Notes under the pieces: generated by a model
The model's input: only the letters and a program-made list of their open reading frames with translations
What the model was told of the DNA's origin: nothing
Database searches by the model: none
Origin: Escherichia coli 042
GTDB taxonomy: Bacteria; Pseudomonadota; Gammaproteobacteria; Enterobacterales; Enterobacteriaceae
Assembly (NCBI RefSeq): GCF_000027125.1
Contig: NC_017626.1
DNA: 64,000 bases
Strand: one strand, 5' to 3'
In this document: positions 1,741 to 64,000 of the stretch, piece after piece
How positions within the stretch are numbered: the stretch's first letter is position 1
Layout of the letters: the number at the start of each line of letters is the position of its first letter
Position numbers and translations under genes: made by a program

Positions 1741-3122
1741 CTGCTATTAATCGCATCCTTATTGTGGATGATGAAGATAATGTTCGCCGTATGCTGAGCA
1801 CCGCTTTTGCACTACAAGGATTCGAAACACATTGTGCGAACAACGGACGCACAGCATTACACCTGTTTGCCGATATTCACCCTGACGTGGTGTTGATGGA
1901 TATCCGCATGCCAGAGATGGACGGCATCAAGGCACTCAAGGAGATGCGCAGCCATGAGACACGGACCCCCGTTATTCTGATGACGGCCTATGCTGAAGTG
2001 GAAACCGCCGTCGAAGCGCTACGCTGCGGGGCCTTCGACTATGTTATCAAACCGTTTGATCTCGATGAGTTGAATTTAATCGTTCAGCGCGCTTTACAAC
2101 TCCAGTCAATGAAAAAAGAGATCCGTCATCTGCACCAGGCACTGAGCACCAGCTGGCAATGGGGGCACATTCTCACCAACAGCCCTGCGATGATGGATAT
2201 CTGCAAAGACACCGCCAAAATTGCCCTTTCTCAGGCCAGCGTCTTGATTAGCGGTGAAAGCGGCACCGGGAAAGAGTTGATTGCCAGAGCGATTCACTAC
2301 AATTCGCGGCGGGCAAAGGGGCCGTTCATTAAAGTCAACTGCGCGGCGCTGCCGGAATCGTTGCTCGAAAGTGAACTGTTTGGTCATGAAAAAGGTGCAT
2401 TTACTGGTGCACAAACCTTGCGTCAGGGATTATTTGAACGTGCCAACGAAGGTACTCTGCTCCTCGACGAAATTGGCGAAATGCCGCTCGTACTGCAAGC
2501 CAAATTACTACGCATTCTGCAGGAACGGGAATTTGAACGGATTGGCGGCCATCAGACCATAAAAGTTGATATCCGCATCATTGCTGCCACCAACCGTGAC
2601 TTGCAGGCAATGGTAAAAGAAGGCACCTTCCGTGAAGATCTCTTTTATCGCCTTAACGTTATTCATTTAATACTGCCGCCTCTGCGCGATCGCCGGGAAG
2701 ATATTTCCCTGTTAGCTAATCACTTTTTGCAAAAATTCAGTAGTGAGAATCAGCGCGATATTATCGACATCGATCCGATGGCAATGTCACTGCTTACCGC
2801 CTGGTCATGGCCGGGAAATATTCGAGAGCTTTCCAACGTTATTGAACGCGCCGTCGTGATGAACTCAGGCCCGATCATTTTTTCTGAGGATCTTCCGCCG
2901 CAGATTCGTCAGCCAGTCTGTAATGCTGGCGAGGTAAAAACATCCCCTGTCGGTGAGCGTAATTTAAAAGAGGAAATTAAACGCGTCGAAAAACGCATCA
3001 TTATGGAAGTGCTGGAACAACAAGAAGGAAACCGAACCCGCACTGCTTTAATGCTGGGCATCAGTCGCCGTGCATTGATGTATAAACTCCAGGAATACGG
3101 TATCGATCCGGCGGATGTATAA
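1737..3122 (+). CDS. atoC: Sigma-54-dependent response regulator AtoC
   Basis: Receiver domain (ILIVDDE...D), AAA+ sigma-54 activator motifs GESGTGKE and GAFTGA, C-terminal HTH. Confidence 0.93.
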   Translation: MTAINRILIVDDEDNVRRMLSTAFALQGFETHCANNGRTALHLFADIHPDVVLMDIRMPEMDGIKALKEMRSHETRTPVILMTAYAEVETAVEALRCGAFDYVIKPFDLDELNLIVQRALQLQSMKKEIRHLHQALSTSWQWGHILTNSPAMMDICKDTAKIALSQASVLISGESGTGKELIARAIHYNSRRAKGPFIKVNCAALPESLLESELFGHEKGAFTGAQTLRQGLFERANEGTLLLDEIGEMPLVLQAKLLRILQEREFERIGGHQTIKVDIRIIAATNRDLQAMVKEGTFREDLFYRLNVIHLILPPLRDRREDISLLANHFLQKFSSENQRDIIDIDPMAMSLLTAWSWPGNIRELSNVIERAVVMNSGPIIFSEDLPPQIRQPVCNAGEVKTSPVGERNLKEEIKRVEKRIIMEVLEQQEGNRTRTALMLGISRRALMYKLQEYGIDPADV

Positions 3123-3133
3123 CGCCAAAACTT

Positions 3134-3173
3134 GCTATGCAGAAATTTGCACAGTGCGCAATTTTCTGCATAG
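3134..3173. promoter_or_regulatory. Inverted repeat of two 20-bp half-sites, candidate AtoC enhancer/operator upstream of atoD
   Basis: GCTATGCAGAAATTTGCACA / GTGCGCAATTTTCTGCATAGC near-perfect palindrome about 110 bp upstream of the sigma-54 promoter. Confidence 0.7.
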
Positions 3174-3255
3174 CCGCTCATTCTCCTTATGAATCCCCAT
3201 CTAATTTATCCCTTCATATTCAATTAGTTAAATAACAAAATCCAATAATCTCATT

Positions 3256-3272
3256 CTGGCACTCCCCTTGCT
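3256..3272 (+). promoter_or_regulatory. Sigma-54 (-24/-12) promoter of atoDAEB
   Basis: TGGCAC-N5-TTGCT match to the TGGCAC-N5-TTGCW consensus, about 45 bp upstream of the atoD ATG. Confidence 0.7.
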
Positions 3273-3317
3273 ATTCCATGACTGTACCCACAACGGTGTA
3301 TGCAAGAGGGATAAAAA

Positions 3318-3980
3318 ATGAAAACAAAATTGATGACATTACAAGACGCCACCGGCTTCTTTCGTGACGGCATGACCATCATGGTGGGCGGATTTATGGG
3401 GATTGGCACTCCATCCCGCCTGGTTGAAGCATTACTGGAATCTGGTGTTCGCGACCTGACATTGATAGCCAATGATACCGCGTTTGTTGATACTGGCATC
3501 GGTCCGCTCATCGTCAATGGTCGAGTCCGCAAAGTGATTGCTTCACATATCGGCACCAACCCGGAAACAGGTCGGCGCATGATATCTGGTGAGATGGACG
3601 TCGTTCTGGTGCCGCAAGGTACGCTAATCGAGCAAATTCGCTGTGGTGGAGCTGGACTTGGTGGTTTTCTCACCCCAACGGGTGTCGGCACCGTCGTAGA
3701 GGAAGGCAAACAGACACTGACACTCGACGGTAAAACCTGGCTGCTCGAACGCCCACTGCGCGCCGACCTGGCGCTAATTCGCGCTCATCGTTGCGACACA
3801 CTTGGCAACCTGACCTATCAACTTAGCGCCCGCAACTTTAACCCCCTGATAGCCCTTGCGGCTGATATCACGCTGGTAGAGCCAGATGAACTGGTCGAAA
3901 CCGGCGAGCTGCAACCTGACCATATTGTCACCCCTGGTGCCGTTATCGACCACATCATCGTTTCACAGGAGAGCAAATAA
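3318..3980 (+). CDS. atoD: Acetate/acetoacetyl-CoA transferase alpha subunit
   Basis: 220-aa ORF, CoA-transferase family A, operon position. Confidence 0.92.
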
Positions 3981-4630
3981 TGGATGCGAAACAACGTATT
4001 GCGCGCCGTGTGGCGCAAGAGCTTCGTGATGGTGACATCGTTAACTTAGGGATCGGTTTACCCACAATGGTCGCCAATTATTTACCGGAGGGTATTCATA
4101 TCACTCTGCAATCGGAAAACGGCTTCCTCGGTTTAGGCCCGGTCACGACAGCGCATCCAGATCTGGTGAACGCTGGCGGACAACCGTGCGGTGTTTTACC
4201 CGGTGCAGCCATGTTTGATAGCGCCATGTCATTTGCGCTAATCCGCGGCGGTCATATTGATGCCTGCGTGCTCGGCGGTTTGCAAGTAGACGAAGAAGCA
4301 AACCTCGCGAACTGGGTAGTGCCTGGGAAAATGGTGCCCGGTATGGGTGGCGCGATGGATCTGGTGACCGGGTCGCGCAAAGTGATCATCGCCATGGAAC
4401 ATTGTGCCAAAGATGGTTCAGCAAAAATTTTGCGCCGCTGCACCATGCCACTCACTGCGCAACATGCGGTGCATATGCTGGTTACTGAACTGGCTGTCTT
4501 TCGTTTTATTGACGGCAAAATGTGGCTCACCGAAATTGCCGACGGGTGTGATTTAGCCACCGTGCGTGCCAAAACCGAAGCTCGGTTTGAAGTCGCCGCC
4601 GATCTGAATACGCAACGGGGTGATTTATGA
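3980..4630 (+). CDS. atoA: Acetate/acetoacetyl-CoA transferase beta subunit
   Basis: 216-aa ORF, 1-nt overlap (TAATG) with atoD. Confidence 0.92.
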   Translation: MDAKQRIARRVAQELRDGDIVNLGIGLPTMVANYLPEGIHITLQSENGFLGLGPVTTAHPDLVNAGGQPCGVLPGAAMFDSAMSFALIRGGHIDACVLGGLQVDEEANLANWVVPGKMVPGMGGAMDLVTGSRKVIIAMEHCAKDGSAKILRRCTMPLTAQHAVHMLVTELAVFRFIDGKMWLTEIADGCDLATVRAKTEARFEVAADLNTQRGDL

Positions 4631-5949
4631 TTGGTCGCATATCGCGTTTTATGACGCGTTTTGTCAGCCGGTGGCTTCCCGATCCACTGATCTTTGCCAT
4701 GTTGCTGACATTGCTAACTTTCGTGATCGCGCTTTGGTTAACACCACAAACGCCGATCAGCATGGTGAAAATGTGGGGTGACGGTTTCTGGAACTTGCTG
4801 GCGTTTGGTATGCAGATGGCGCTTATCATCGTTACCGGTCATGCCCTTGCCAGCTCTGCTCCGGTAAAAAGTTTGCTGCGTACTGCCGCCTCCGCCGCAA
4901 AGACGCCCGTACAGGGCGTCATGCTGGTTACTTTCTTCGGTTCAGTCGCTTGTGTCATCAACTGGGGATTTGGTTTGGTTGTCGGCGCAATGTTTGCCCG
5001 TGAAGTCGCACGCCGAGTACCCGGTTCTGATTATCCGTTGCTCATTGCCTGCGCCTACATTGGTTTTCTCACCTGGGGTGGCGGTTTCTCTGGCTCAATG
5101 CCTCTGTTGGCTGCAACACCGGGCAACCCGGTTGAGCATATCGCCGGGCTGATCCCGGTGGGCGATACTCTGTTCAGTGGTTTTAACATTTTCATCACTG
5201 TGGCGTTGATTGTGGTGATGCCATTTATCACCCGCATGATGATGCCAAAACCGTCTGACGTGGTGAGTATCGATCCGAAACTACTCATGGAAGAGGCTGA
5301 TTTCCAAAAGCAGCTACCGAAAGATGCCCCACCATCCGAGCGACTGGAAGAAAGCCGCATTCTGACGTTGATCATCGGCGCACTCGGTATCGCTTACCTT
5401 GCGATGTACTTCAGCGAACATGCCTTCAACATCACCATCAATACCGTCAACCTGATGTTTATGATTGCGGGTCTGCTGCTACATAAAACGCCAATGGCTT
5501 ATATGCGTGCTATCAGCGCGGCAGCACGCAGTACTGCCGGTATTCTGGTGCAATTCCCCTTCTACGCTGGGATCCAACTGATGATGGAGCACTCCGGTCT
5601 GGGCGGACTCATTACCGAATTCTTCATCAATGTTGCGAACAAAGACACCTTCCCGGTAATGACCTTTTTTAGTTCTGCACTGATTAACTTCGCCGTTCCG
5701 TCTGGCGGCGGTCACTGGGTTATTCAGGGACCTTTCGTGATACCCGCAGCCCAGGCGCTGGGCGCTGATCTCGGTAAATCGGTAATGGCGATCGCCTACG
5801 GCGAGCAATGGATGAACATGGCACAACCATTCTGGGCGCTGCCAGCACTGGCAATCGCCGGACTCGGTGTCCGCGACATCATGGGCTATTGCATCACTGC
5901 CCTGCTCTTCTCCGGCGTCATTTTCGTCGTTGGTTTAACGCTGTTCTGA
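4627..5949 (+). CDS. atoE: Short-chain fatty acid transporter
   Basis: 440-aa polytopic membrane protein, ATGA overlap with atoA. Confidence 0.9.
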   Translation: MIGRISRFMTRFVSRWLPDPLIFAMLLTLLTFVIALWLTPQTPISMVKMWGDGFWNLLAFGMQMALIIVTGHALASSAPVKSLLRTAASAAKTPVQGVMLVTFFGSVACVINWGFGLVVGAMFAREVARRVPGSDYPLLIACAYIGFLTWGGGFSGSMPLLAATPGNPVEHIAGLIPVGDTLFSGFNIFITVALIVVMPFITRMMMPKPSDVVSIDPKLLMEEADFQKQLPKDAPPSERLEESRILTLIIGALGIAYLAMYFSEHAFNITINTVNLMFMIAGLLLHKTPMAYMRAISAAARSTAGILVQFPFYAGIQLMMEHSGLGGLITEFFINVANKDTFPVMTFFSSALINFAVPSGGGHWVIQGPFVIPAAQALGADLGKSVMAIAYGEQWMNMAQPFWALPALAIAGLGVRDIMGYCITALLFSGVIFVVGLTLF

Positions 5950-20220: not shown

Positions 20221-23200
20221 CTACCATTTCACCGTCATCGACAAAAACCCTGCCGTCTGGGCAAAATCATCACTCCCTTTCTGCCACGCCACGCTGCCGC
20301 GCAGCGAAACTCGCTGACTGATATTGCCCGTGACTCCCACTTTTATTTCACCCCGTTGCTTCACCGCATCGTCACTGATAGTGCTGCCATCTTCTTCAAT
20401 TTCCGTCGCATGGGGATCGTGATAATAATTCAGATCTAATGTTGGTATGACATGAACAGCGGTACGCCATTCGCTGTGTAAACCCAGCCGCGTTTGAATA
20501 TCATCACCCTGCGATTGTGACACGCGCGCATGGTTAGCGGCGGTAAAATCATCCTGCTGCACGCCCTGATAAATCACCTGCGCCTGCGGTTCAACCACCA
20601 CACCACGCCCCGGTAACCACTGATACCCCGCTTCCAGCGAGGCGATAATCCCCGACGAATGGTAATGATCTGTGCCATCGTCTTGTTCGGAAACATCATT
20701 GTTAAACCACGCGTATTGCAGCCAGCTATCCAGCCAGGCCCCCTGCTTCTGATTACCGTGCTGAAACCAGCTTGAGGTCAGACCAACGGCATAACCGTGG
20801 TTCTGGTTATCGGCGCGAGTTCCGGTCATATTCGAGCGGCTGTCGCCCTGGTTATCACTGTAGCCACCAACCGCCCCAAGCATCCACTCGCCATCCGCGC
20901 CCCAGCGCCCGCTAAACAAGTCGCCGCTAAGCTGCACCGTAGAAGTGTCTTCATGCTGAGCCAGTTGCCCCGCTGCTGTGTAATGATAATTTCCGCCGAT
21001 AACACGTAAATTCAGCGTCTGACCATCGCCACCAGCGTGATCGTGTCGCTCCATCACAAACGCCTGATTTGCCGCCCGCAGGTTATTAAAATATCCACCA
21101 ACTTTGGCATTCAACACCGGCTGGTAGGCAGGCGTAGGGTCCGGGGCCGGGTCGGGTGTTGGATCAGGATCGGGAGTCGGGTCTGGATCAGGTGGCGATG
21201 GTGGCGTTACTTCTTGCGATCGCAGATACCAGTCGTTGTTATCTTCCACCAGCGTGTAGTCATACGCTCCCATATTGACGTAGCCGCTGCCTGCCAGACT
21301 GAACTGCGCATTGTTTTGAAACTGCGTGGGATCAGCTGCGAAATCAACCACTTTAATGCCTGTCGATGTCGGCTCACCAATCCCTGTAATGGAGTTAACC
21401 ATCACAGTTGTGTTGCCAGCAGTATTACCGTTCATCACCAATTGATCGCTTACCGAGTCATCGCCGTTTAATTCGCTATCGAGCAGTAGCGTACCACCGC
21501 CGGTATAATCACCGTTTACCGTCAGCGTATCGCCAGCGACGCCATTTTGCAGGCTAACCGCACCAGACGTATTGGTCAGATTGCCATTAACCGTCACGTT
21601 GGAAAGATAAGTCAGGCTGTCAGTTTCAAGGTTGGTATTAAGCTCGCCTGTCAACGTCACGCCATCGGTGGCATTCACCAGCGTCCCATCGCCGTTAAAC
21701 AGTGAGGCATTAAGGGCGACGGAAGTATCCTGCCCGGTCAGGCGCAAAACCGTACCATCGCTGATGTCGATAGTGCCGCTGGAAGTAGCATCAATTGACT
21801 GAATATCCTGATCCGCGCCAGTCTTGAATGTTGCCCCGTCACCGACCCACAGCGACGAAGCATAAGGGAAGATATCCGCAACATCACCTTTCAGGGTGCC
21901 TTCTTCGACACGTACCGCCGACTGCGTTGTACCGCTGGCGGTCAGTTCCAGCGTACCCGCCCCCGTTTTCGTCAATGTGCTACCCTCATCCTGATGCTGC
22001 CCGCTGCTGTCAGCCATCAGTGCGCCCCACTGCGTGTCTACCCCCGCATCAACTGCCACTTCACCGTCGGCGCGCATTTCAATATCACGCCCGTGACCTG
22101 CTGCCTCTGAACGAGTATCAACGTCAGCGGTAATTTCCATCTCACTTTGTTGTTGGCTATCAGTAAAGATGAGCTGACGGTTTTCGTCGGTATTGCCAAG
22201 CTGCGAGTTGTCGCTCACCACCAGCGTACCGGAAGCGATTTGCGTGGTGCCCAGGTAACTATTATTGTTTGCCAGGCTAACCAGCCCGTCGCCCGCATCG
22301 ATCACCACGTAGACGCCATCTTTCTCGTCGCCGCCGATATGCAAATTGTCGCCACCTGCGAGATCCACCACATCCTGACTGCCGATAACCGTACCGCCGC
22401 TGCCGCTGACTGCAAGGCCATCGTTGTATGATGTGCCGCTCTGCCAGGTGGCGAAATCAGAGAGATCAAGCACGCCGCCGTTTAACACGATCGACTGCGG
22501 ATCGTCCTGGAGAGCGGCAAGATCTGCCGCGTCGCCTTCCAGCGTAAGCACCGCGCCATCATCAACGACTATATCGCCAGTTAGCGCCATCGACTGAGCC
22601 CCTGCCAGCACGTAGCTGCCGTTTTGCGCAATGGTGAGCTGACCAGCACCTTCGATGGTGCCAGCAAAACTGCCCTGATTAACAGTAACGTTGCCACCAG
22701 CATCGATATTTAAAGTGCCATTCTGAAAGCCCATCAATGCGTGCACAAAAGTTTGTTGGGTCGAGCCAACGTTTAGCTCAGCCTGATTCTGATACTGATC
22801 AATACTCCCTATCGTCAGACCGTAGCAGTCTTGCGTATCGTCCTGGCAATGCGTATCGCCGACATTCATCAGGGAGTTGCTGCGGCCCAGGGTAACTTCA
22901 CCGTTTTCAATCTGCATCTCGCCAGTAAAGTCATTGTTATCTGCATTAAGTACCAGATCGCCGGAACCTGTTTTGGTGATTAACCCGGTACCAGCAATAG
23001 AGTCAACAGCTCCGTCATTCTCTGTATTGCCGATAACCAGCGTTTTTCCGTCGGCAATATCAAAGGTAACGTCACTTAAGCCGAGATACATAAAGCCACC
23101 CGCCGCAGTGGAAGGACCATCTCCATAGCCTGCTGCGCTATTGTTCTCATCCACTAAAACACCGTTGTTCTGGCTGTAGCTGTCATCAACTGAAATATCA

Positions 23201-23961
23201 ATAAGATAGGGAGCCGTCACGCTATTGGTATAAATCGCCCCGCCATATCCCTCAGCAGAGTTATTTGTAAATGCGGTGTTATTTATTATTGTGAAACCTG
23301 ACGGATGCGTGATATCGCTATTATTATCGGTGACATCGATTGCCCCTCCATCGCCATCACTGTAACTTGTTGATGTATATGCCTGGTTATTGTCAAAAAT
23401 AACTTCATTTAAATAGACGTCATTGTTGATGGTATAAATTGCACCACCTTTGCCGTCATTAGCGATGTTATTGCGAAACACGGCGTTAGTGACACGTAAA
23501 TCGACGACACCGGTATCGTTAGTACCAGAAGAATAGATTGCGCCACCATAGCCACCTGCAACGTTACCGGAAAAAATAACATTAGTAAGATTCAGCGTTG
23601 AGTTTTCTTTAGCAAATATTGCCCCGCCGTTATTATATTCTCCTGAGACAGTATTATTGGCAAACAGAGTCATTCCAGTTTCATTTTCTGGCGATAGAGA
23701 AAACTCCGCTCCTTGTTGCAAAAATACGGCCCCACCGCTGGCGTTATTAGTCATATCCGAAAAAACCAGCCATTGCCCATCGGCGATGCTCCAGTCCTGC
23801 GTAAAGCTTGAAAGGCTTTGCCTGCTGGCGTGACAACTCGCTTTGATATCATATCCCTGGCATAAATCAATGGCCGCCGCGACACCGTTAGCAGAGAAAA
23901 GATACGCAATCATTGACGGGAGTAAAGATAAATACTCCTTGCGTAGAAAAATAATCCGCAT
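20221..23961 (-). CDS. yfaL: AIDA-I-type autotransporter adhesin YfaL
   Basis: 1246 aa; signal peptide, glycine/asparagine-rich passenger, PD/PT repeat linker, C-terminal beta-barrel ending in W. Confidence 0.9.
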   Translation of the reverse strand: MRIIFLRKEYLSLLPSMIAYLFSANGVAAAIDLCQGYDIKASCHASRQSLSSFTQDWSIADGQWLVFSDMTNNASGGAVFLQQGAEFSLSPENETGMTLFANNTVSGEYNNGGAIFAKENSTLNLTNVIFSGNVAGGYGGAIYSSGTNDTGVVDLRVTNAVFRNNIANDGKGGAIYTINNDVYLNEVIFDNNQAYTSTSYSDGDGGAIDVTDNNSDITHPSGFTIINNTAFTNNSAEGYGGAIYTNSVTAPYLIDISVDDSYSQNNGVLVDENNSAAGYGDGPSTAAGGFMYLGLSDVTFDIADGKTLVIGNTENDGAVDSIAGTGLITKTGSGDLVLNADNNDFTGEMQIENGEVTLGRSNSLMNVGDTHCQDDTQDCYGLTIGSIDQYQNQAELNVGSTQQTFVHALMGFQNGTLNIDAGGNVTVNQGSFAGTIEGAGQLTIAQNGSYVLAGAQSMALTGDIVVDDGAVLTLEGDAADLAALQDDPQSIVLNGGVLDLSDFATWQSGTSYNDGLAVSGSGGTVIGSQDVVDLAGGDNLHIGGDEKDGVYVVIDAGDGLVSLANNNSYLGTTQIASGTLVVSDNSQLGNTDENRQLIFTDSQQQSEMEITADVDTRSEAAGHGRDIEMRADGEVAVDAGVDTQWGALMADSSGQHQDEGSTLTKTGAGTLELTASGTTQSAVRVEEGTLKGDVADIFPYASSLWVGDGATFKTGADQDIQSIDATSSGTIDISDGTVLRLTGQDTSVALNASLFNGDGTLVNATDGVTLTGELNTNLETDSLTYLSNVTVNGNLTNTSGAVSLQNGVAGDTLTVNGDYTGGGTLLLDSELNGDDSVSDQLVMNGNTAGNTTVMVNSITGIGEPTSTGIKVVDFAADPTQFQNNAQFSLAGSGYVNMGAYDYTLVEDNNDWYLRSQEVTPPSPPDPDPTPDPDPTPDPAPDPTPAYQPVLNAKVGGYFNNLRAANQAFVMERHDHAGGDGQTLNLRVIGGNYHYTAAGQLAQHEDTSTVQLSGDLFSGRWGADGEWMLGAVGGYSDNQGDSRSNMTGTRADNQNHGYAVGLTSSWFQHGNQKQGAWLDSWLQYAWFNNDVSEQDDGTDHYHSSGIIASLEAGYQWLPGRGVVVEPQAQVIYQGVQQDDFTAANHARVSQSQGDDIQTRLGLHSEWRTAVHVIPTLDLNYYHDPHATEIEEDGSTISDDAVKQRGEIKVGVTGNISQRVSLRGSVAWQKGSDDFAQTAGFLSMTVKW

Positions 23962-43078: not shown

Positions 43079-44800
43079 GCCCTGAAGAACGTGGATCCCT
43101 GCTACGTTCAGGCTGTCGCCTGAATCATTTCGGTGGGTTCCTGCTTCAACGAGCGGCCTGACTGCACCATCTCTCCACAGGCAAGAACGGCGTGCCCCGC
43201 CGCTAAAATGTTACGAGCGCCATTTACATCGGCGTTCGCTGTATATCCACATACCTGGCATCTGAATTGACTTTGTGACAGGCGATTTTCTTTCGCAGTA
43301 TGACCACAGCACGCGCAACGCTGGCTTGTGTACGCTGGCGGAACAGCAAGCAACTGACCGCCACTCCAGAGCTGCTTGTACTCAAGCTGGCGGCGCATTT
43401 CATACCAGCCCTGATCCAGTATCGAACGGTTTAAACCTGATTTTGCCCGGACATTGCGCCCCGGCTGGCTGAGCGTACCCGCTGCTGACTTTGACATGTT
43501 GCTGACCTTCAAATCCTCAATGACTATCATTGCGTGGTTTTTGCTGACGGTCGTTGTGACTTTGTGAAGGTAGTCCCTGCGGATATTTGCGATACGGGAA
43601 TGCAGTCGCTGTATTTTGCGTTTCTGCTTCTGCCAGTTGTTGCTGAATTTGACCCTGCGGCTTAACTGTCGCTGAAGTCTCGCCAGCTTCTTCTGGTTTT
43701 TCTGAAAACTGTTTACAGGCTCAAAGACTGTGCCATCTGACAGCGTGGCGAGTTTAGCCACGCCAGCATCCAGCCCGACCATTGATGCTGAAGGGTGAAC
43801 CGGAGTTGATACTTCACTTTCTGTCTGAATACTGATGTACCACTTACCGCAGGACTGGCTGACAGTGACATTTTTTACAACACCCGTGACCTGACGGCTG
43901 TTCCGGTAGCGCATCCAGCCCAGTTTCGGCAGAAAAATACGGCTGTTTTCCTGATCGAGCTTAACGCCCTGCGGATAGCGGAATGCATCATTCTGTCCCC
44001 GCTTTTTGAATCGGGGAAAAGCAGCCCGATTCTGGAAGAAGTTTTTGTAAGCCCGCTCAAGGTCTTTCAGTGACTGTTGCAATGGCTGTGAGGGCGAATC
44101 TTTAAGCCATTGCGTTTCAGTGGCGTTTTTCCACTCAACCAGCCAGGAAGCCATTTTCCCGTAAGGGATGTATTTATTACCGGCCTCATGATTCTCATTC
44201 TGAAGCGCCAGAGCGCGATTGAAAACGAAACGACATGCGCCTGCGAAGCGCCTCATTTCACACTCCTGTTGACCACCTGGTCTTAACTGGAATTTAAATG
44301 CCTGTAATCGTTTCACAGGTCAAATGATACTTTGGTCTATGAAAAAAGAAACCGATATCCGGCGTGGAAGGCATTGTGTTTTCCTGATGCATGTTCACCT
44401 GGTCTTTGTCACCAAATACCGACGCCAGATTTTTGACCATGACGCGACAGAAAAACTACGCACTTACTTTTCAAATGTATGTGCTGATTTTGAAGCTGAA
44501 CTGGTTGAAATGGATGGCGAACCAGATCACGTCCATTTGTTAATTAACTATCCTCCCAAACTGGCGATATCCAGTCTGGTAAACAGCCTCAAAGGCGTAT
44601 CGGGTAGGTTACTGCGACGAGATCGACCAGATATTGCAGTCAGGTATTACTACAAAGGCGTTTTGTGGAGTCCTGGCTATTTTGCCAGTAGCTGCGGAGG
44701 TGCGCCAATATCCGTCATCCGCCAATACATTGAACAACAGCAAACACCTGGTCAGGTGGAAAACCGCGCCTTATATCCCCGCCCTGAAGGACGGGGTTTT
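43070..44800. mobile_element. IS200/IS605-family insertion sequence (divergent tnpA and tnpB); boundaries approximate
   Basis: Y1 (HUH) transposase plus TnpB ORFs; 14-bp near-identical motif CGCCCTGAAG[A/G]ACG in direct orientation at both ends (43078-43091 and 44780-44793), each within a hairpin. Confidence 0.7.
43108..44316 (-). CDS. tnpB: TnpB (OrfB) RuvC-like transposon-associated nuclease
   Basis: 402 aa; C-terminal zinc finger CACCGH...CQVCG and RuvC-like motifs typical of IS605 OrfB. Confidence 0.88.
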
Positions 44801-54934: not shown

Positions 54935-55266
54935 TCTGGCTAACATTAGTCTTTGCCAGCTTGCTTAGCGTTGCCGGGCAGTTGTGTCAGAAACAAGCAA
55001 CCTGCTTTGTGGCGATAAACATACGGCGCAAACATATCGTGCAGTGGCTGGGACTGGCGCTGGCTTGTCTTGGCCTTGCCATGGTGCTCTGGCTGCTGGT
55101 CTTGCAGAACGTACCGGTAGGCATTGCCTACCCGATGTTAAGTCTGAATTTTGTCTGGGTGACGCTGGCTGCAGTAAAACTGTGGCACGAGCCGGTATCA
55201 CTGCGTCACTGGTGTGGGGTGGCGTTCATTATTGGCGGCATTGTGATCCTCGGGAGTACGGTGTAA
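54931..55266 (+). CDS. arnE: Ara4N-undecaprenyl-phosphate flippase subunit ArnE
   Basis: 111-aa SMR-like 4-TM protein. Confidence 0.9.
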
Positions 55267-55652
55267 TGGGCCTGATGTGGGGATTATTCAGCGTCATTAT
55301 TGCCTCAGCTGCGCAATTAAGCCTGGGTTATGCGGCGAGTCATCTACCGCCGATGACGCACTTATGGGATTTTATCGCGGCGCTGTTAGCTTTTGGCCTG
55401 GATGCCCGGATACTGTTACTCGGGCTGCTGGGTTATCTGCTTTCCGTTTTTTGTTGGTATAAAACGCTACATAAACTTGCGTTAAGCAAAGCCTATGCCT
55501 TGCTCAGTATGAGCTATGTGCTGGTATGGATTGCATCAATGATACTTCCCGGCTGGGAAGGAACTTTTTCGCTGAAGGCACTACTGGGAGTTGCTTGTAT
55601 TATGAGCGGGTTGATGTTGATTTTCCTGCCCACGACAAAACAACGTTACTGA
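55266..55652 (+). CDS. arnF: Ara4N-undecaprenyl-phosphate flippase subunit ArnF
   Basis: 128 aa from [10 protein letters not shown]; start overlaps arnE stop. Confidence 0.9.
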
Positions 55653-55912
55653 GTTTTCCCTGCCGCTGTACACTGCCGTTCCCACTCATCGGGGCTATAA
55701 CTGCTTGCCGAGAGGACTTTCACCGTATGCAGCTTTTCACGATTAATACAATAAAGCGCATTCTGCAAAGGTGAGAGTAAATCCCCCACTTTCACGGCGA
55801 AGTCACTCTTCACTTCGGCGATCATTTTTATCGCGCCGCCAGCATCGCAGAGCATAAGTACATGTCTGTTATCTTGTTTATTGCAGCACGATTTTTTGAC
55901 CAGCCATTCCAT
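55646..55912 (-). CDS. pmrD: Signal transduction connector PmrD
   Basis: 88 aa from [19 protein letters not shown]. Confidence 0.9.
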
Positions 55913-56021
55913 TGCATTATCCTGTTTGCTAAGAGTTTTCACATCAATTTACAGATTAACAGATAAACTCTTTATCAACGGCAATGGAATGGCAGAAATG
56001 AGAAGTGAAACGGAGGATTAA

Positions 56022-57377
56022 TTATTGCTGGCGTTGCACCCACTCTTTTAGCGCCTGACGTGAAATTTTAATACCGCCGTTTTTCAGCTCCGGCGGCAGA
56101 GTTAGCCAGCGCACCGGTTGTTGAAAACGAGCCAGCTTATCTTTCACCCATTCGTCAAGATCAACGGTTTGCTGGTCATACTCCACCACCGCTACCGGCC
56201 GATGACCAAACTCCTTGTCGGCAACGGGAACGATAAACACCTGCAAAACTGCAGGATGTGCAGCAATAACACGCTCGACTTCTTCCGGCTGAATACCCTC
56301 ACCGCCACTGAAGAACAGATTATCTAAACGTCCGACAATGGTCAGCTTGCCATTATGCATCTCACCGCGATCGCGCGTGGCGTACCAGCCTTCGTCATTA
56401 ATCAGTGGAACCAGTTGCCCGTTACGCCAGTAACCTTCTGCCATACTGGCAGCCCGCAGCCACACTTCATCATTAACGATTTTCACTTCCCGCCCCGGCA
56501 GCGGCGAACCGACGTCCGCCAGGCCGTCGGCTTCTTTCGCACACACCGTGGAGGCAAACTCGGTCAGACCATAGCCGCAAAAGCAACGAATCCCCTGCTC
56601 GCGCGCCTGTTCCGTCAACTCGACCGGGATAGCCGCACCGCCAAGTAACACCGCTTTCAGGGAAACGGAACTGCGGTTAACCAGCAAACGCCAGAGTTGT
56701 GTTGGCACCAGTGAAGCGTGAGTACAGCCTGCCAGCATTTGCTCCAATGGCTGTTTATCACGTACCGTCATCCGCGCGCCAGCGTATAACCAGCGCCACA
56801 TAATTCCCTGGCCGGAGACGTGAAACAGCGGTAAAGAGAGCAACCAGTCATCGTGCTCGCCAAACGGTATCAGCGATAACACACCTTGCGCACTGGCAAG
56901 ATGGGCCTGATAAGTATGAACAGCGGCTTTCGGCAAACCGGTAGAGCCGGAGGTCAACGTCATTGAGCACAGACGCGTCGGCTGCCACGCAGCGGCATGT
57001 GCGCCTTCAACCAGCTGAATGTGCAGCGACGTTAACGCCGGAAACGTGTTTTCCCCATCCGGCACCAGCGCAAATTGCAGCGTCAGATTGGGGAGCAATT
57101 CCTCAAGTAACGGTTGCGGCAGCTGTGGATTCACGGGCAGCACCCGCGCCCCGCATTGCAGTAACGCCAGCCAGGCCAGCAGCGTTTGCGGCGAATTCCA
57201 CGCCCGCAACATCACGCCGCTGCCCTCAACAACGCCCTGCGCCGCAAAGCCGGAGGCTAATTCATCGACGCGAGCACAAAGCTCGCGCCAGTTAAGTTGC
57301 TCGTCATTAAGACGTAAGGCGATGGCTTCTCCCCGCACTTGCCGCCAGTGACGCCACGGCCAGTCAGAGAAGATCAT
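56022..57377 (-). CDS. menE: o-Succinylbenzoate-CoA ligase
   Basis: 451 aa; AMP-binding motif [10 protein letters not shown]. Confidence 0.95.
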
Positions 57378-58337
57378 AACAGCCGCTCCAGTGCATCAAC
57401 TTCCACTAACGGTAGCGGGCTACCCGGCCAGCGACGAACCTGCTGCGCCTGCATCAGATCCAGCGTGTCCAGCCCCGGAATGGTGTCTGGCGTTAACCAG
57501 GCGGCAATCCGCGCCAGTTGCGTTAAGCCTAAGCTCGACTCAATAGAAGAACTGATCACCGCCGTCAGCCCCAACGCGTGCGCTGCCTGTACCTGCTCGC
57601 GTACTTTTTCCAGACTGCCCGTGAGCGTGGGTTTGATAACTACCGCGCGCACGCCCTCTTCAGCCACAAAGGCAAAATCCGGCTCGCGCAGGCTTTCATC
57701 CCAGGCAATGGCAATGCCGGTTTCACGGGCAAACGCACGCGAATCATCGCGGGTTTTGCACGGTTCTTCGAGAAACGCGATGCGGTGGCGATAATCCGGG
57801 TTAACGTATTTGGCAAACTGCTGGCCTTTCAGCGGTGTCCAGGCGCGATTCGCGTCAAGACGCAAATGCAGATCCGGAATTGCCTCCAGCAACAGATTAA
57901 CCACCATGCCGTCGCGCACCGCTTCGTACAATCCCACTTTGACCTTCGCCACTTTCTCGCCTGGCATATCGGCAAGTTTCAGGATCAGATCGTCAGGATC
58001 GCCATTACACAGTGGTGCCGCACGGTAATTGGCCGCCCGCGGGAGCGTGTCTGCCAGCTCCGCCAATGCACAGCTTATGCCAAAGGCGACGGAAGGCATT
58101 TGCGGTAATTCGCAATCGCCTGCCAGCCAGTTATTTACCCAGGCAAGCAGCACACTTTGCGCCTCTTCCCAGGTTTCCTGACTAAAGCCCGGCAGTGGGG
58201 AGATCTCCCCCCCACCCTTCACGCTCGCCCTCACGCAGGCAAACGTACAGCCCGTCGCGGGTTTTTAACCGCCTGTCGCGCAGAACCACCCCCGCGTCCA
58301 TGGGGATCTGCCAGCGGTATACCTGCGCGCTACGCAT
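57374..58337 (-). pseudogene. menC: o-Succinylbenzoate synthase menC with apparent +1 frameshift in a C7 (coding-strand G7) run at 58207-58213
   Basis: N-terminal 51 codons ([14 protein letters not shown]...EGWG) and C-terminal 286-codon ORF (GEISPLPGF...) lie in different frames; span is 964 nt, not a multiple of 3. Confidence 0.8.
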
Positions 58338-59194
58338 TACGGATTCCGTTTAAATTTGCTGAAATCAGGCTGACGTTTCTGGTTGAAGGCGTTGCGACCT
58401 TCCTGACCTTCTTCCGTCATGTAGAACAGCATGGTGGCGTTGCCCGCCAGCTCCTGCAGCCCCGCCTGACCGTCACAGTCGGCGTTCAGCGCTGCTTTCA
58501 GGCAACGCAGCGCCATCGGGCTGTTTTGCAGCATTTCGCGGCACCAACGGACGGTTTCTTTTTCCAGATCCGCCAGCGGTACCACGGTGTTGACAAGGCC
58601 CATATCCAGCGCCTGTTTCGCGTCGTACTGACGGCACAGGAACCAGATTTCACGCGCTTTTTTCTGTCCGACGATGCGAGCCATGTAGGAAGCGCCCCAG
58701 CCGCCGTCGAAGGAACCGACTTTCGGGCCAGTCTGACCGAAGATGGCATTATCTGCCGCGATAGTCAGGTCGCACATCATATGCAAAACGTGACCGCCGC
58801 CGATGGAGTAGCCAGCCACCATCGCGACAACCGGTTTCGGACAGGTACGGATCTGACGCTGGAAGTCCAGCACGTTCAGGTGATGTACGCCGGAATCATC
58901 TTTATAGCCGCCGTAATCACCACGCACTTTCTGGTCACCACCGGAGCAGAACGCTTTATCGCCTGCGCCAGTCAGAATGATCACGCCGATGTTGTCGTCA
59001 TAACGCGCATCTGCCAGTGCCTGGATCATCTCTTTTACCGTCAGAGGACGGAAGGCATTGCGCACCTGCGGACGATTAATGGTGATTTTTGCGATACCGT
59101 CGGTGGATTTTTCATAACGAATGTCCTCGAAACCTTCGGAGCAGTCGTGCCATTCAACCGGTGCGTAAAGCATTGCTTCATCAGGATAAATCAT
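58337..59194 (-). CDS. menB: 1,4-dihydroxy-2-naphthoyl-CoA synthase
   Basis: 285-aa crotonase-fold enzyme. Confidence 0.96.
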
Positions 59195-59208
59195 ATTGTG
59201 TCCTTTAG

Positions 59209-59967
59209 TCAGAAACGCAAGATCTGCGCCAGACTTGCGATAACGCCAGCGGGATTTTCCCGATGCGCGTTATGTCCGGCGCGAGGAATGACATGGCAGT
59301 CGGCAGCCAGTTCCGCCGCCAGAGCGCGGAATTTGCTGTCACGTTCACCACATAAATAATAAAACGCAAATGTGCGGGCGCTAAGGTTAGCACGTAAATC
59401 AGGCTGGACGGCGAGAGAAGTGGCCTCCAGCATCGCGGCAAGGGTTGCGCCGTTATTGTTGCTGCGCAGCGCCACCAGCTCCCGGCGTTGATCGTCATTG
59501 AGCGAGGCAAAAACAGGCTGTTGGTACCAGTCGGCAAATACCGCGGTTAATGGTTCGGAACGAAAACGCTGCGCCCATTGGCGATCGGAACGCTGACGTT
59601 CCGCGCGTTGTTCAGCATTTTGCAACCCTGGATGCCCGCCTTCGACAACAACCCCACAAAGCCCCGCCATCCCCTGACAAGCCGCCATCATCGCCACCCG
59701 TCCGCCAAGCGAGTACCCCACCAGCCAGAAGTTAAGGATGTTGTAACTAACCAGAGTTTTACGCAGTAAGCCGGTGACATCATCAAATCCATCGACGCTA
59801 ATTGCTGCCGAACCACCGTGACCTGGGAGATCAACATACAACCGCGAGTAGTCGGCAAACGCCTCGCCCACTTCTTGCCATTCATGGCAATCGCCGGAAA
59901 AACCGTGCAAAAACACCAGCCAGGGTAAACCTGGTTTGCCGTGTTTTGCCTGCGCGTGCAGGATCAT
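59209..59967 (-). CDS. menH: SHCHC synthase (alpha/beta hydrolase)
   Basis: 252 aa; nucleophile motif GYSLGG. Confidence 0.93.
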
Positions 59968-61634
59968 AAATGGCTTACCTGCGCCAGCAGTTGCTGGAGG
60001 GTTTGCGCACCATCGGTGTCGTTAACCACCATTTCAATTACCGTGGTGGTCGGCGTGCGCCAGGCGTCGGCAAGTGCAGTTTCAAGTTCCTGCCAGTTTT
60101 GCGGACGATGATATTTCAGCTCGAACATCGCGGCGGCGTGCTCAAAATGGACGTTTTGCGGCATCAGATAGAAACGCTCGCGCTCGTTTTTCGGCGTTGG
60201 CAACAGCGAGAAAATTTGCCCGCCGTTGTTGTTCACCACAATTAATACCAGCGGCGCGGAAACCTGACGTAATAACGCCAGCGCGTTGAGATCGTAAAGA
60301 GCTGAGAGATCGCCCACAATCGCCAGCGTCGGTTTGCCGCTTGCCCGCTGAACGCCTGCGGCGGTCGAGAGCAGCCCGTCGATACCGCTGGCACCACGGT
60401 TGCTGTACACCGGGTAACCTGCCGGAAGTTGCGAAAGCGCATCAATCAGACGTACCACCAGGCTGTTACCGACAAACAATTGCCCCTGTTCAGGTAGATA
60501 GTCGCTGATGCGATGCGCCAGTAGGGCTTCGCCAAACGCATCGCGACGGGCAATAACCGCCTGCATTGCCTGTTCCGCCAGGCGCGGGATTTCAACGCAC
60601 CAGGGCTGGCGTTTTTCTGCCGGATGTTGCTCCAGCCAGTCGGCAATATTGGCAATTAAGCGACGTCCGCGATGGTGTGCCGGATCAAGTCGCCCTTCAA
60701 TGTCATCAACAATCCAGTACTCTTCGGGTTCACAGCTTGCCTGCCATTGCAGGAGCCGTTTGCCCGTCAGGCTGCTTCCCAGTTGCACCACAATTTGCGC
60801 CTGTTGCAGTTCGCTGATCGCTTTGGCATTGCTTAACCAGAGATCGGCACACGGCAGCGGCTGCCCGGTTTGCGACAGCACATCACCGATCAGCGGCCAG
60901 CCAAGAGTTTGCGCCCACAGTGCAACTTTTTTGCCCTCTTCCGCACTCATGCGCCCGGCAACCACCACGCCGCGCTTTTGCCGCCAGAAGAACCAGTCGC
61001 GCTGTTTTTCACTTTCCAGACGAGGCGCTTCACGCAGCCACGGTTTGTCGTCCTGCCACCAGTCGCCCAGCCGCTGTTGCCAGCTAAGCCCGGTGTCGTC
61101 CATTTCGCCATACAGCGGTTCAGCAAACGGGCAGTTGATATGGACTCCACCAGCATGAAGCGTACCGAGAGCGTGGTCGATGGTAGAAACCAGCCAACGT
61201 GCGGGGATATCCTGGGTCGGGCGCGGCAGTGAAATACTGTGCGTAGGGTGAGAGGCGAACATTCCCGGCTGACGAATCGCCTGATTCGCGCCGCAGTCAA
61301 TTAGCTCCGGCGGGCGATCGGCGGTTAACAGGATCAGTTTTTCTCCGGTTAACCCGGCTTCTATCAGTGCCGGATAGAGATTTGCTACCGCCGTGCCGGA
61401 GGTCACAATCACCGCCACCGGCTGCTTGCTGACTTTCGCCAGCCCCAGCGCCAGATGCCCTAGTCCGCGCTCATCGAAATGGGTGTGGTGAATGAATGCG
61501 GAATTCTCCGCCGCCGCTAACGTTAACGGTGTAGAACGCGAGCCAGGGGCGATACAGATGTGTCTGACGCCGTGACGCGTTAATGCTTCCAGAATGACCG
61601 CCGCCCAGCGTCGGTTAAATGCGCTTACTGACAT
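59964..61634 (-). CDS. menD: SEPHCHC synthase (ThDP-dependent)
   Basis: 556 aa from [22 protein letters not shown] overlap with menH. Confidence 0.94.
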
Positions 61635-61722
61635 GAGTTTGTCCGGTATCAATATTGCGGCTAAGTATAAGGAGCTACAAAAATAGATTATTGATATGAA
61701 TCGGTAATGATGCGACTCATTA

Positions 61723-63018
61723 CTATTCCATTTGTAATAAAGTACGCAGCCCTGCCGCTTTGTTGTCGATTTCCTGCCACTCTTGCTCGGGGTCGGAACC
61801 ACGGACAATGCCCGCGCCAGCATATAGTCGCACGACATTGCCACTGATTTTTGCTGAGCGCAGGGAAACGCAGAATTCGCTTTGTTGTAAAGAGAGATAG
61901 CCCGCAGAACCGGCGTACCATTCTCGGGTGAACGGTTCGTGACGGGCGATAAACTGTCGCGCCAGATCGCGCGGTAAGCCAGCAACTGCTGCCGTTGGCT
62001 GCAACTGATGTAAACAGATCACATCATCCGCTTTGTTGAGTGAAGTCCAGATACAGCGGCGAAGATGCTGCACTTTACGCAAACGCAGTACCTGCGGCGG
62101 TAAAACATCCAGCGTCTGGGTATCGGCCTGTAATCGTTGGCAGATATCTTCCACCACCAACATGTTCTCGCGTTGGTTTTTATCATCCGCCATCAGCCAC
62201 TCACCCAACCGCTGCGCCTGCTTATCATCAGGATGATTTGCTACCGTTCCCGCCAGCGCTTCAGTACGCAGCGCTTTGTCACGCCGCCGCCATAACCGTT
62301 CCGGTGAAGAGCCAAGAAAAGCAGTTTCGCCATCAAAGGCCATGTAAAAATGGTAGCAATTCAGATTCAGTCGACGACTGGCAGCCATCATCGCTGCCGC
62401 ATTGACCGGACTTGCGAAATGCAGGTCAGTTGCCCGAGCAAGCACCACTTTGTCGAGCTCACCTTCGGCGATGGTTTTCGTTGCCAGTTCGATTAATTGC
62501 GTCCAGCCCGTTTTGTCCGGCCAGTGTTGTTCTCGGGTGGTGGTTAAATGTAACCCAGGCAAGGGTTTAATACTCACCAGTGTGGCGATAAATTCTTTTG
62601 CCTTAATCGCATCATGCTGAAGGGAGCTTTCGCTGAATAGCGTCAGCCGCAGCGTGGCTTTACCGCCACAGCGTCGCCATTCGAGGCGTGGTAAAAGTAA
62701 ATTACCCTGCGACGGGTCAAACGCATTCAGCCCCCAGATGCGTAAGTCGGCGTGTTCCGGGTGCTGACGAAGAAACGTTTGTGCCTGGTCCAACGACGTA
62801 AAACGGGTAATCGCGCCCAGGACGGCAGCTTCTTCATCACCATTACGTTGTTGCCAGTAGAATTGCGGGTACGTTTGCTGACTGGCCAGCCAGCTCAAGG
62901 CATCAAAAGCGTCTTTGAGAGGGAAAGGAATATCAATAACCCGAATGCCGGGTGTCGCCGGAATCTCTTGCGACAAATGGCGCAGTAGATTTTCCAGCGC
63001 CGTAGTAAGTGATTGCAC
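61723..63018 (-). CDS. menF: Isochorismate synthase (menaquinone-specific)
   Basis: 431 aa, chorismate-binding family. Confidence 0.93.
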
Positions 63019-63096
63019 GCGGACCTCTCCCTGTTAAAAGCCTCACATTATACGGGGTACTACAAAAAAAATGCAGTACCCCGGTGTAGGGAGGTT

Positions 63097-63402
63097 TTAA
63101 CGGCGTGCCAGCAACAGTCCTAGTACCAGCCCAACGGCCGCACCCACACCAATTCCTTGCCAGGGTTTTTCGTGGACGTAGTCATCAGCACGATAAACAG
63201 CCTGCTTCGCCCGATAGTAATAACTGTCTGAAGCCTGGCTAACCCGTTTTTTCACATCATCCAGCGCTTTTTCTGCACGCGCTTTCAGTTCAACATATTT
63301 CTGATCGGCGGGATCGCCAGAGGAGCGGAGCACCTCTTCCAGTGTTTCACTAAGCAGCGTCAGGTCATCATCGATACGTGTATCACCAAACTGATTAGAC
63401 AT
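63097..63402 (-). CDS. elaB: Membrane-anchored ribosome-binding protein ElaB (DUF883)
   Basis: 101 aa with C-terminal TM anchor (GIGVGAAVGLVLGLLLARR). Confidence 0.9.
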   Translation of the reverse strand: MSNQFGDTRIDDDLTLLSETLEEVLRSSGDPADQKYVELKARAEKALDDVKKRVSQASDSYYYRAKQAVYRADDYVHEKPWQGIGVGAAVGLVLGLLLARR

Positions 63403-63456
63403 TCTCGTTCTCCATTTGCGTAAAACCTGTCACTAACTATAGACAAGGGTTATTGA

Positions 63457-63918
63457 TTACGCCTGAATTACCTCGCGAGCCATCCCAATGTGTGGGATAC
63501 CATCTTCTTCATAGACCTCCGTCACAGGGATAAAGCCAAAACTCTGGTAGAAGTTTTGCAGATGCGCCTGCGCCCCGAGGTAAACAGGTTTATCAGGCCA
63601 GTGACGCGTACATGTTTCGAGTGTTTTACTCATCAGCTGCTGCCCCACTTTTTCGCCACGCAACGCTTCACTAACAATCACCCGACCAATAACGACCGGC
63701 TCAAGATCATCATCACTTTTCAGAATCCTCGCATACGCCACCAGTTCATCATTTTTCCAACCGAGAATATGGCGATTATCCCCCGTCAAATCATCACCAT
63801 CGATATCCTGATAAGGGCAATTCTGCTCAACAACAAACACCGCGCAACGCAGTTGTAATAAGGCATAAAGCTGGGAAACCGATAATTCAGAGTGATGCAG
63901 ATCTTGCCATTCAATCAT
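63457..63918 (-). CDS. elaA: GNAT-family N-acetyltransferase ElaA
   Basis: 153-aa ORF; acetyl-CoA-binding-like region RGEKVGQQLM. Confidence 0.88.
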   Translation of the reverse strand: MIEWQDLHHSELSVSQLYALLQLRCAVFVVEQNCPYQDIDGDDLTGDNRHILGWKNDELVAYARILKSDDDLEPVVIGRVIVSEALRGEKVGQQLMSKTLETCTRHWPDKPVYLGAQAHLQNFYQSFGFIPVTEVYEEDGIPHIGMAREVIQA

Positions 63919-64000
63919 AATGCTCTCCTTTTAGATGTATGCCTTATACTAGCCGGAATATTTTTTGAAACGTGATGAACTCATGGAATTAATTTTTTTA

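Follow-up and report, generated by a model that had tools for sequence, protein, structure and literature searches.

In the chromosome of Escherichia coli 042, we examined a 64,000-nt stretch (contig NC_017626.1; hereafter the window) in which menC, the gene for o-succinylbenzoate synthase (OSBS) of menaquinone synthesis, is interrupted by one extra G in a run of G residues. As given, the locus is a menC pseudogene and not a menC gene. The seven-G (7-G) allele is derived and private to this one assembly, even among its clone-mates, and this privacy is new information. We favour, at about even confidence, a real and very recent replication-slippage mutation that made menC a pseudogene over a sequencing error. 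The competing explanation is a sequencing or finishing artefact, a base-calling miscount at a G/C homopolymer within a GC-rich hairpin, so that menC would be intact, with 6 G, in the living strain; we regard this as a serious possibility that falls a little short of an even chance.

On the minus strand, the sequence at the lesion reads GAA GGG TGG GGG GGA GAT CTC CCC ACT GCC GGG CTT TAG (58130-58345 read). The initial annotation had described a menC of 964 nt at 57374..58337 split by a +1 frameshift, with 7 G at 58207-58213 and 43 native residues running into a TAG stop at 58182-58184. Our reading of the coordinates, the sequence and its translation agrees with that description: the menC span 57374-58337 is 964 nt long, and the features of the lesion are as follows.

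58207-58213, minus strand: run of seven G (C7 on the plus strand), the lesion itself, at menC nt 125-131 and one G longer than the conserved G6 tract.
58182-58337, minus strand: 5′ menC fragment of 51 aa, made of 43 native codons (M1-G43), eight out-of-frame codons (GDLPTAGL) and TAG at 58182-58184.
57374-58205, minus strand: 3′ remainder of menC in the +1 frame, native E44-L320 plus the stop, holding K133, D161, E190, D213 and K235.
58185-58190 as listed, minus strand: CTT TAG, where the shifted frame has its final sense codon and its stop (TAG at 58182-58184).
58192-58216, minus strand: GC-rich quasi-palindrome GGTGGGGGGG-AGAT-CTCCCCACT around a GATC (Dam) site, with the G run in its 5′ arm.

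The list of open reading frames (ORFs) gives the 3′ part as a 286-aa ORF at 57374-58234 on the minus strand, with a GTG start at 58234. The earlier statement that the remainder of the enzyme continues for 286 codons in the +1 frame is right as to the frame and the ORF length, but native MenC accounts for only 277 of those codons (E44-L320), the first nine being out-of-frame readthrough of upstream menC sequence. Other in-frame GTG or ATG starts for the 3′ fragment lie at 58222, 58153 and 58099. In the alignment of lineages, the TAG of the shifted frame occurs only in those with TTT at Phe51, the others having TTC. The capping and barrel domains do not share a single uninterrupted frame, as the break falls after codon 43 and the stop is codon 52.

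Removal of one G restores the exact 320-aa MenC, as the initial annotation had anticipated in proposing that 6 G would join the two parts into an enzyme of ~320 aa. The repaired protein is identical to a public o-succinylbenzoate synthase sequence found on at least 1000 contigs, scores 518.1 bits against NF003473 (cutoff 236) and 444.8 bits against TIGR01927 (cutoff 130.55), and aligns end to end with PDB 1FHU at 706 bits with a handful of substitutions. The 51-aa fragment reaches 53.6 bits against NF003473, below the cutoff of 236, and covers profile positions 3-46 only; the 286-aa ORF scores 452.6 bits, above the cutoff, yet covers positions 42-328 only. We take K133 and K235 to be the catalytic Lys pair and D161, E190 and D213 to be the metal ligands (E. 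coli numbering), following the literature on structure 1FHV; the repaired protein has the expected residue at each of the five positions, every one of which lies in the 3′ fragment. Minus one G, the window protein is near-identical to E. coli K-12 MenC (PDB 1FHU, 1FHV, 1R6W and 2OFJ; NF003473, TIGR01927), and the gene has the same operon position, its start and stop codons overlapping those of its two neighbours. Unlike K-12 MenC, the frame in the window breaks after residue 43, leaving the enzyme in no single ORF.

The operon order is menF-menD-menH-menB-menC-menE, and all of its men genes except menC are intact. The menC ATG and the menB stop share base 58337 (TAATG), and the menC TGA overlaps the menE ATG (ATGA). 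The immediate neighbours are as follows.

58337-59194, minus strand: menB, intact, directly upstream of menC.
56022-57377, minus strand: menE, intact, directly downstream, its start overlapping the menC stop.

The 7-G allele was found in no other assembly. Whole menC has matches in 5,419 of 5,426 complete E. coli genomes, and the best 20 of these whole-gene matches show 99.9% identity over 963 nt, not 964, which indicates one gap. An 81-nt probe centred on the tract (searched with 11-nt seeds) had no match at 99% or above, that is, the exact 7-G 81-mer occurs in 0 of the 5,419 complete genomes; among 60 probe matches sampled across the whole ranking, all 59 full-length ones span 80 nt. The tract reads T-GGGGGG-A in all six other lineages that were aligned (Ecol_316, O157:H7, Nissle 1917, a K-12-like strain, FDAARGOS_1287 and CAVP761), and THO-008 likewise has 6 G. 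The initial annotation had suggested comparing the run length in related genomes and had named 7 G in intact homologs, with a different local frame, as evidence against its reading; this was looked for and not found, every intact homolog read having 6 G. In public metagenome contigs, the 7-G pattern had no match and the 6-G control matched 42. A 49-nt megablast probe, in which all 28-mer seeds crossed the 7-G run, also returned no match and was set aside, as low-complexity masking may account for that result.

The predicted products of the frameshift were also sought by exact look-up among ~15 billion proteins, including those from public read-set assemblies. Neither the 51-aa fragment nor any of the C-terminal fragments with lengths of 286, 282, 241 and 230 aa was found. 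A 259-aa C-terminal fragment is present, on contigs that have 6 G and in which a different lesion, a gap in the scaffold or the end of the contig is seen.

Clone-mates of the window offer the closest comparison. They were sought as contigs carrying the window's exact and distinctive MenH allele; 25 such contigs were read, collapsing to three displayed places, and a 320-aa MenC is found at all three. Assembly GCA_036599305.1 equals the window over 8,760 bp (55208-63967) save for C6 instead of C7 at 58213. Two genomes of the National Collection of Type Cultures (NCTC), LR134238.1 and LR134246.1, have 6 G and no substitutions relative to the window over 8.76 kb. As the 7-G allele is private to a single assembly, including in comparison with these clone-mates, the extra G arose on its terminal branch.

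The relationship of the clone-mates to strain 042 is supported by two further lesions, found by mapping every coding sequence of the nearest complete genome, Ecol_316, onto the window. The first is a nonsense change, CAG to TAG, at codon 292 of 397 in a gene for a major facilitator superfamily (MFS) transporter (29345-30535, minus strand; stop at 29660-29662). The C-to-T change affects the inner C of a CCAGG site for Dcm methylation, which is a classic hotspot of 5-methylcytosine deamination. This allele is found in 0 of the 779 complete RefSeq genomes holding the gene, and the truncated 291-aa MFS product is present on 52 contigs. The second is a 483-bp deletion in a gene for a LysR-family regulator (30687-31424, plus strand), with its junction at 31421 and 2-3 nt of microhomology, which removed the last 48 codons and downstream intergenic DNA. 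The resulting truncated 245-aa product corresponds to CBG35312.1 of E. coli 042 and occurs on 46 contigs. Since independent sequencing has reproduced both lesions, they are real markers of the lineage. In GCA_036599305.1, the MFS nonsense change and the LysR truncation are found on one 402-kb contig, and the clone-mates share the two lesions with the window, tying them to the E. coli 042 lineage.

Over 29.5 kb, the window and GCA_036599305.1 differ at three sites. Two of these are a single-nucleotide polymorphism (SNP) at 22413 and a run at 32139 that is A8 in the window and A7 in the clone-mate; the outgroup Ecol_316 has the window's state at both, which places the changes on the clone-mate's side. 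The private changes of the window in these 29.5 kb are thus zero SNPs and one indel, the extra G. The A8 run (32139-32146) lies inside an AT-rich 368-aa ORF of unknown function (31511-32617, plus strand); GCA_036599305.1 has A7 and a truncated 247-aa call there, and Ecol_316 annotates the gene as frameshifted.

If the extra G is real, it would most likely have been inserted by replication slippage in the G6 tract at codons W42-G43-E44 (TGG GGG GAG), very recently, on the terminal branch that ends in the sequenced stock. Several considerations support a real mutation. Homopolymer slippage is the commonest indel mechanism; the same lineage carries other real inactivating mutations that have been independently sequenced again (the 52 and 46 contigs above); and natural menC knock-outs occur within 45 nt of the G tract. 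With respect to the last point, an insertion of IS421, an IS4-like insertion sequence (IS), is located at menC ~nt 138, ~7 nt past the G tract, in the human blood isolate CAVP761 (locus 2414-4725), and the same insertion at ~nt 138 is present in an independent read-set assembly, SRR33956737 (1-100). In a different lineage, the Logan assembly SRR10568411 (~2990) has a 1-nt deletion in menC, GGG to GG in CCTGGGAAG, at the window equivalent of 58170 and 37 nt downstream of the G tract; this deletion is unverified and may be an assembly error. SRR33956737 and SRR10568411 are both unverified read-set assemblies. Judging from these sequences, menC-null E. coli occur naturally, and the short stretch around the G tract has been hit more than once. 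These knock-outs resemble that of the window in the gene lost and in lesions falling within 45 nt, and differ from it in mechanism and lineage.

The same observations have to be set against an artefact, and several of them weigh against the mutation being real. The allele is unique to one assembly and is missing from the 5,419 complete genomes, from the metagenomes and from clone-mates without substitutions over 8.76 kb; no independent 7-G assembly was found through the exact look-ups of frameshift products, and a gene product derived from 7 G is present in no independent assembly. There is no secondary decay in menC, which is without substitutions, and menF, menD, menH, menB and menE are intact. 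The lack of any private SNP in 29.5 kb implies a very short terminal branch, on which few real private indels would be expected genome-wide. The run is the longest G/C run in the window and lies inside a predicted 9-bp GC hairpin, a classic setting for Sanger compression. Differences in homopolymer length also recur among the assemblies of this clone, as in the A8 versus A7 difference at 32139 and in the 1-nt deletions of the NCTC PacBio genomes. A +1 change in the longest G/C run, confined to one assembly and free of secondary decay, is predicted by a real mutation and by an error alike; an error predicts every supporting observation equally well, with the exception of the cleanliness of the assembly.

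That cleanliness, together with the probable origin of the sequence, counts in the other direction. Compressions usually lose bases and do not add them, and frameshifts in well-known conserved genes are usually checked against the traces by the annotators of finished genomes. The window shows no other signature of error in 64 kb, with no further frame-breaking indel and, against the relatives aligned, no window-private length change in another long homopolymer. The probable source is a finished 8x genome read by dye-terminator capillary sequencing, in which 7-base runs are normally resolved; the 042 genome paper reports 8x dye-terminator sequencing on ABI3700 instruments followed by finishing. 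The same paper counts 110 chromosomal pseudogenes and does not mention menC, which is a further point against a real mutation. We found no paper on the menC status or menaquinone phenotype of strain 042.

The comparisons behind this assessment cover the window and its relatives. Across the 36 kb between 22.5 and 58.3 kb, the window differs from Ecol_316 by nine substitutions, and the single frame-breaking indel is that in menC; the remaining indels relative to Ecol_316 consist of two 6-nt insertions that keep the frame of yfaL and of a pair in the diverged menH segment that compensate each other. A mismatch-repair mutator signature was considered and rejected, the nine substitutions being four transitions and five transversions. 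Sixteen other long homopolymers (three G/C runs of 6 and 13 A/T runs of at least 7) show no window-private change in length relative to the relatives aligned. A Nanopore-type systematic error, suggested by the position of the MFS nonsense change at a Dcm site, was likewise rejected: differences fall in 1 of 188 Dcm sites, the nonsense change is present on 52 contigs, and a Sanger source is probable. As for the NCTC genomes, LR134238.1 and LR134246.1 (PacBio) have two and five extra 1-nt deletions, respectively, in short homopolymers over the 8.76 kb (55254-58357 equivalent). These deletions, which split menE and alter the end of menB, look like assembly errors, and they show that homopolymer lengths are unreliable in some public genomes of the clone.

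The tract itself is not exceptional in composition. It is the sole G/C run of at least 7 in the 64 kb, and shuffles of the window contain five such runs on average, so that one G7 run is not above chance. The non-random aspect is that the run interrupts a conserved gene at a tract with 6 G everywhere else examined. The surrounding quasi-palindrome, which is centred on GATC and can also be written as GTGGGG(GG)AGATCTCCCCAC or as GGTGGGGGG(G)-AGAT-CTCCCCACT, is kept with 6 G in all E. coli lineages aligned. The predicted 9-bp GC hairpin includes the G run (minimum free energy structure; z = -3.05 for the 121-nt context). Template-switch repair within the quasi-palindrome does not account for the extra G, since correction templated by the 4 C of the opposite arm would make the G run shorter and not longer.

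A different possibility is that the extra G has a function, either as a contingency run of G residues that switches menC on and off or as a site of programmed +1 frameshifting or transcriptional slippage. In other bacteria, contingency tracts are classically G/C homopolymers, and two contexts that could allow low-level +1 slippage precede or include the stop: slippage at G-GGG-G would restore the native protein, and slippage at CUU-UAG would give a full-length protein with six substitutions. Polymorphism is expected of a phase-variable tract, whereas 6 G is the length in every other genome or contig examined (the 5,419 genomes, the clone-mates and the 42 metagenome contigs); across these sequences the tract does not behave as a phase-variable one. 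For recoding, the hairpin contains the slip site, whereas a stimulator would lie downstream, and all in-frame alleles have the hairpin too; a Shine-Dalgarno-like stimulator is missing at the spacing found in prfB (~3 nt upstream); and the CTT TAG context is owed solely to the synonymous TTT/TTC polymorphism plus the frameshift. Seven G is also shorter than the runs known to give efficient RNA polymerase slippage in E. coli. An Rfam scan of both strands over 4 kb, with E values up to 1 allowed, gave no match. Taken together, we consider functional recoding or phase variation very improbable.

The resemblance to prfB, the gene for release factor 2 (RF2), deserves a comment in this respect. The prfB site CUU UGA C and the window's CUU UAG U share a shift-prone Leu codon, and in the window a +1 slip there would regain the native frame. 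Unlike prfB, the window has UAG instead of UGA as its stop, lacks a Shine-Dalgarno-like stimulator 3 nt upstream, and has an unconserved context without autoregulatory logic, so that it is a resemblance only. The shifty contexts occur in this one allele alone, and all homologs are in frame, which sets the locus apart from a programmed frameshift of the prfB type.

It could also be imagined that the two pieces form a split but active OSBS, with the 51-aa peptide joined by a re-initiated C-terminal chain; one candidate start for that chain is the GTG at 58153, with GGAAGAGG ahead of it. In-frame GTG or ATG starts are available at 58234, 58222, 58153 and 58099, gene callers pick the 58153 start in other assemblies with a disrupted 5′ end, and K133, D161, E190, D213 and K235 are kept in the C-terminal fragment. 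However, nothing suggests that the split is ever maintained; it is private to one assembly, and MenC is one chain in all 5,419 other genomes. Moreover, the last eight residues of the N-terminal fragment are out of frame, the fragment starting at 58153 also lacks residues 44-61, and neither piece retains the conserved G-E-I-S-P-L-P-G segment, which is either destroyed or missing. A search of the open-access literature on the N-terminal loop of OSBS found no paper. We regard a split functional enzyme as scarcely credible, less so even than recoding.

Against this background, the preferred reading of a recent slippage mutation and the alternative of a base-calling error both make the feature ordinary, a homopolymer frameshift of an already known kind. 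The window shares with known slippage pseudogenes and with assembly miscounts a one-base expansion of the longest G/C run that is private to the terminal branch and without decay, and a mirror case is seen in the clone-mate, where A8 became A7 in another ORF. Nothing sets the menC of the window apart from a textbook homopolymer frameshift.

Several further observations concern the rest of the window. A segment of ~3.8 kb (59200-63020, menH-menD-menF) is 1.6-3.6% diverged from ST69-like (sequence type 69-like) relatives, and menC, menE and the sequence down to ~22.5 kb, as well as elaA/elaB on the other side, are near-identical to them. From these comparisons, the divergence of menH-menD-menF is a recombination mosaic with a boundary ~1 kb from the frameshift. 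The first 1-22 kb of the window are likewise 1-4% diverged. The yfaL/ehaC autotransporter gene (20221-23961, minus strand) is an intact ORF of 1246 aa; its two in-frame insertions relative to Ecol_316 lie in a Gly/Pro-rich repeat, with indels near 21139-21172 and a cluster of substitutions. The window shares with the ST69-like relatives an IS200/IS605-type tnpB gene (43108-44316, minus strand), which in relatives is accompanied by a partial tnpA, and a transposase-like gene of rpnE/ISNCY type (39807-40766, plus strand). No Shigella-type IS expansion was seen in the window, and GyrA is wild type at S83 and D87.

Should the 7 G be real, translation of the sequence has ribosomes that start at the menC ATG making 43 native residues, then GDLPTAGL, and stopping at codon 52. 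From the OSBS structures and what is known of the enolase superfamily, the 51-aa product, without the whole barrel domain and the catalytic residues, would be expected to be inactive, and products re-initiated at internal GTG or ATG codons would lack at least 43 N-terminal residues of the capping domain and would probably be inactive as well. The ~800 nt of untranslated menC mRNA before menE would be expected to lower menE expression through the loss of translational coupling and possible Rho polarity. Menaquinone and demethylmenaquinone would be expected to be lost or severely reduced, and with them the anaerobic respiration that depends on these quinones, whereas ubiquinone would sustain normal aerobic growth. 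Some full-length enzyme may plausibly leak through at a low level, as a +1 slip of Gly tRNA on G-GGG-G would restore the exact native sequence; alternatively, a +1 slip of Leu tRNA at CUU-UAG (CUU to UUU) would give a protein of 320 aa with six substitutions in residues 44-51. Deletion of menC leaves E. coli viable, although menaquinone synthesis requires the gene (PMC8601525; PMC4079197). That the 7-G allele is real in the 042 stock, making this reference pathogen naturally menaquinone-deficient, or leaky with residual MenC from spontaneous +1 slippage, is possible but on balance doubtful.

The general interest of the lesion is small, and its relevance is practical, in that it bears on the status of the menaquinone pathway in strain 042, the prototype enteroaggregative strain, which was used in an adult volunteer challenge (042 genome paper). 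If the extra G is an error, a core metabolic gene has been wrongly removed from a reference annotation, and genome-scale models inherit the gap. If it is real, a reference strain for pathogenesis studies, metabolic models and volunteer work would be without a functional menaquinone pathway, which would affect anaerobic respiration with fumarate, dimethyl sulfoxide (DMSO) and trimethylamine N-oxide (TMAO), anaerobic pyrimidine synthesis and the interpretation of anaerobic or gut-colonisation data from the strain. In that case, either menaquinone-dependent anaerobic respiration would be dispensable for human diarrhoea, or the anaerobic physiology of 042 would be atypical of its pathotype.

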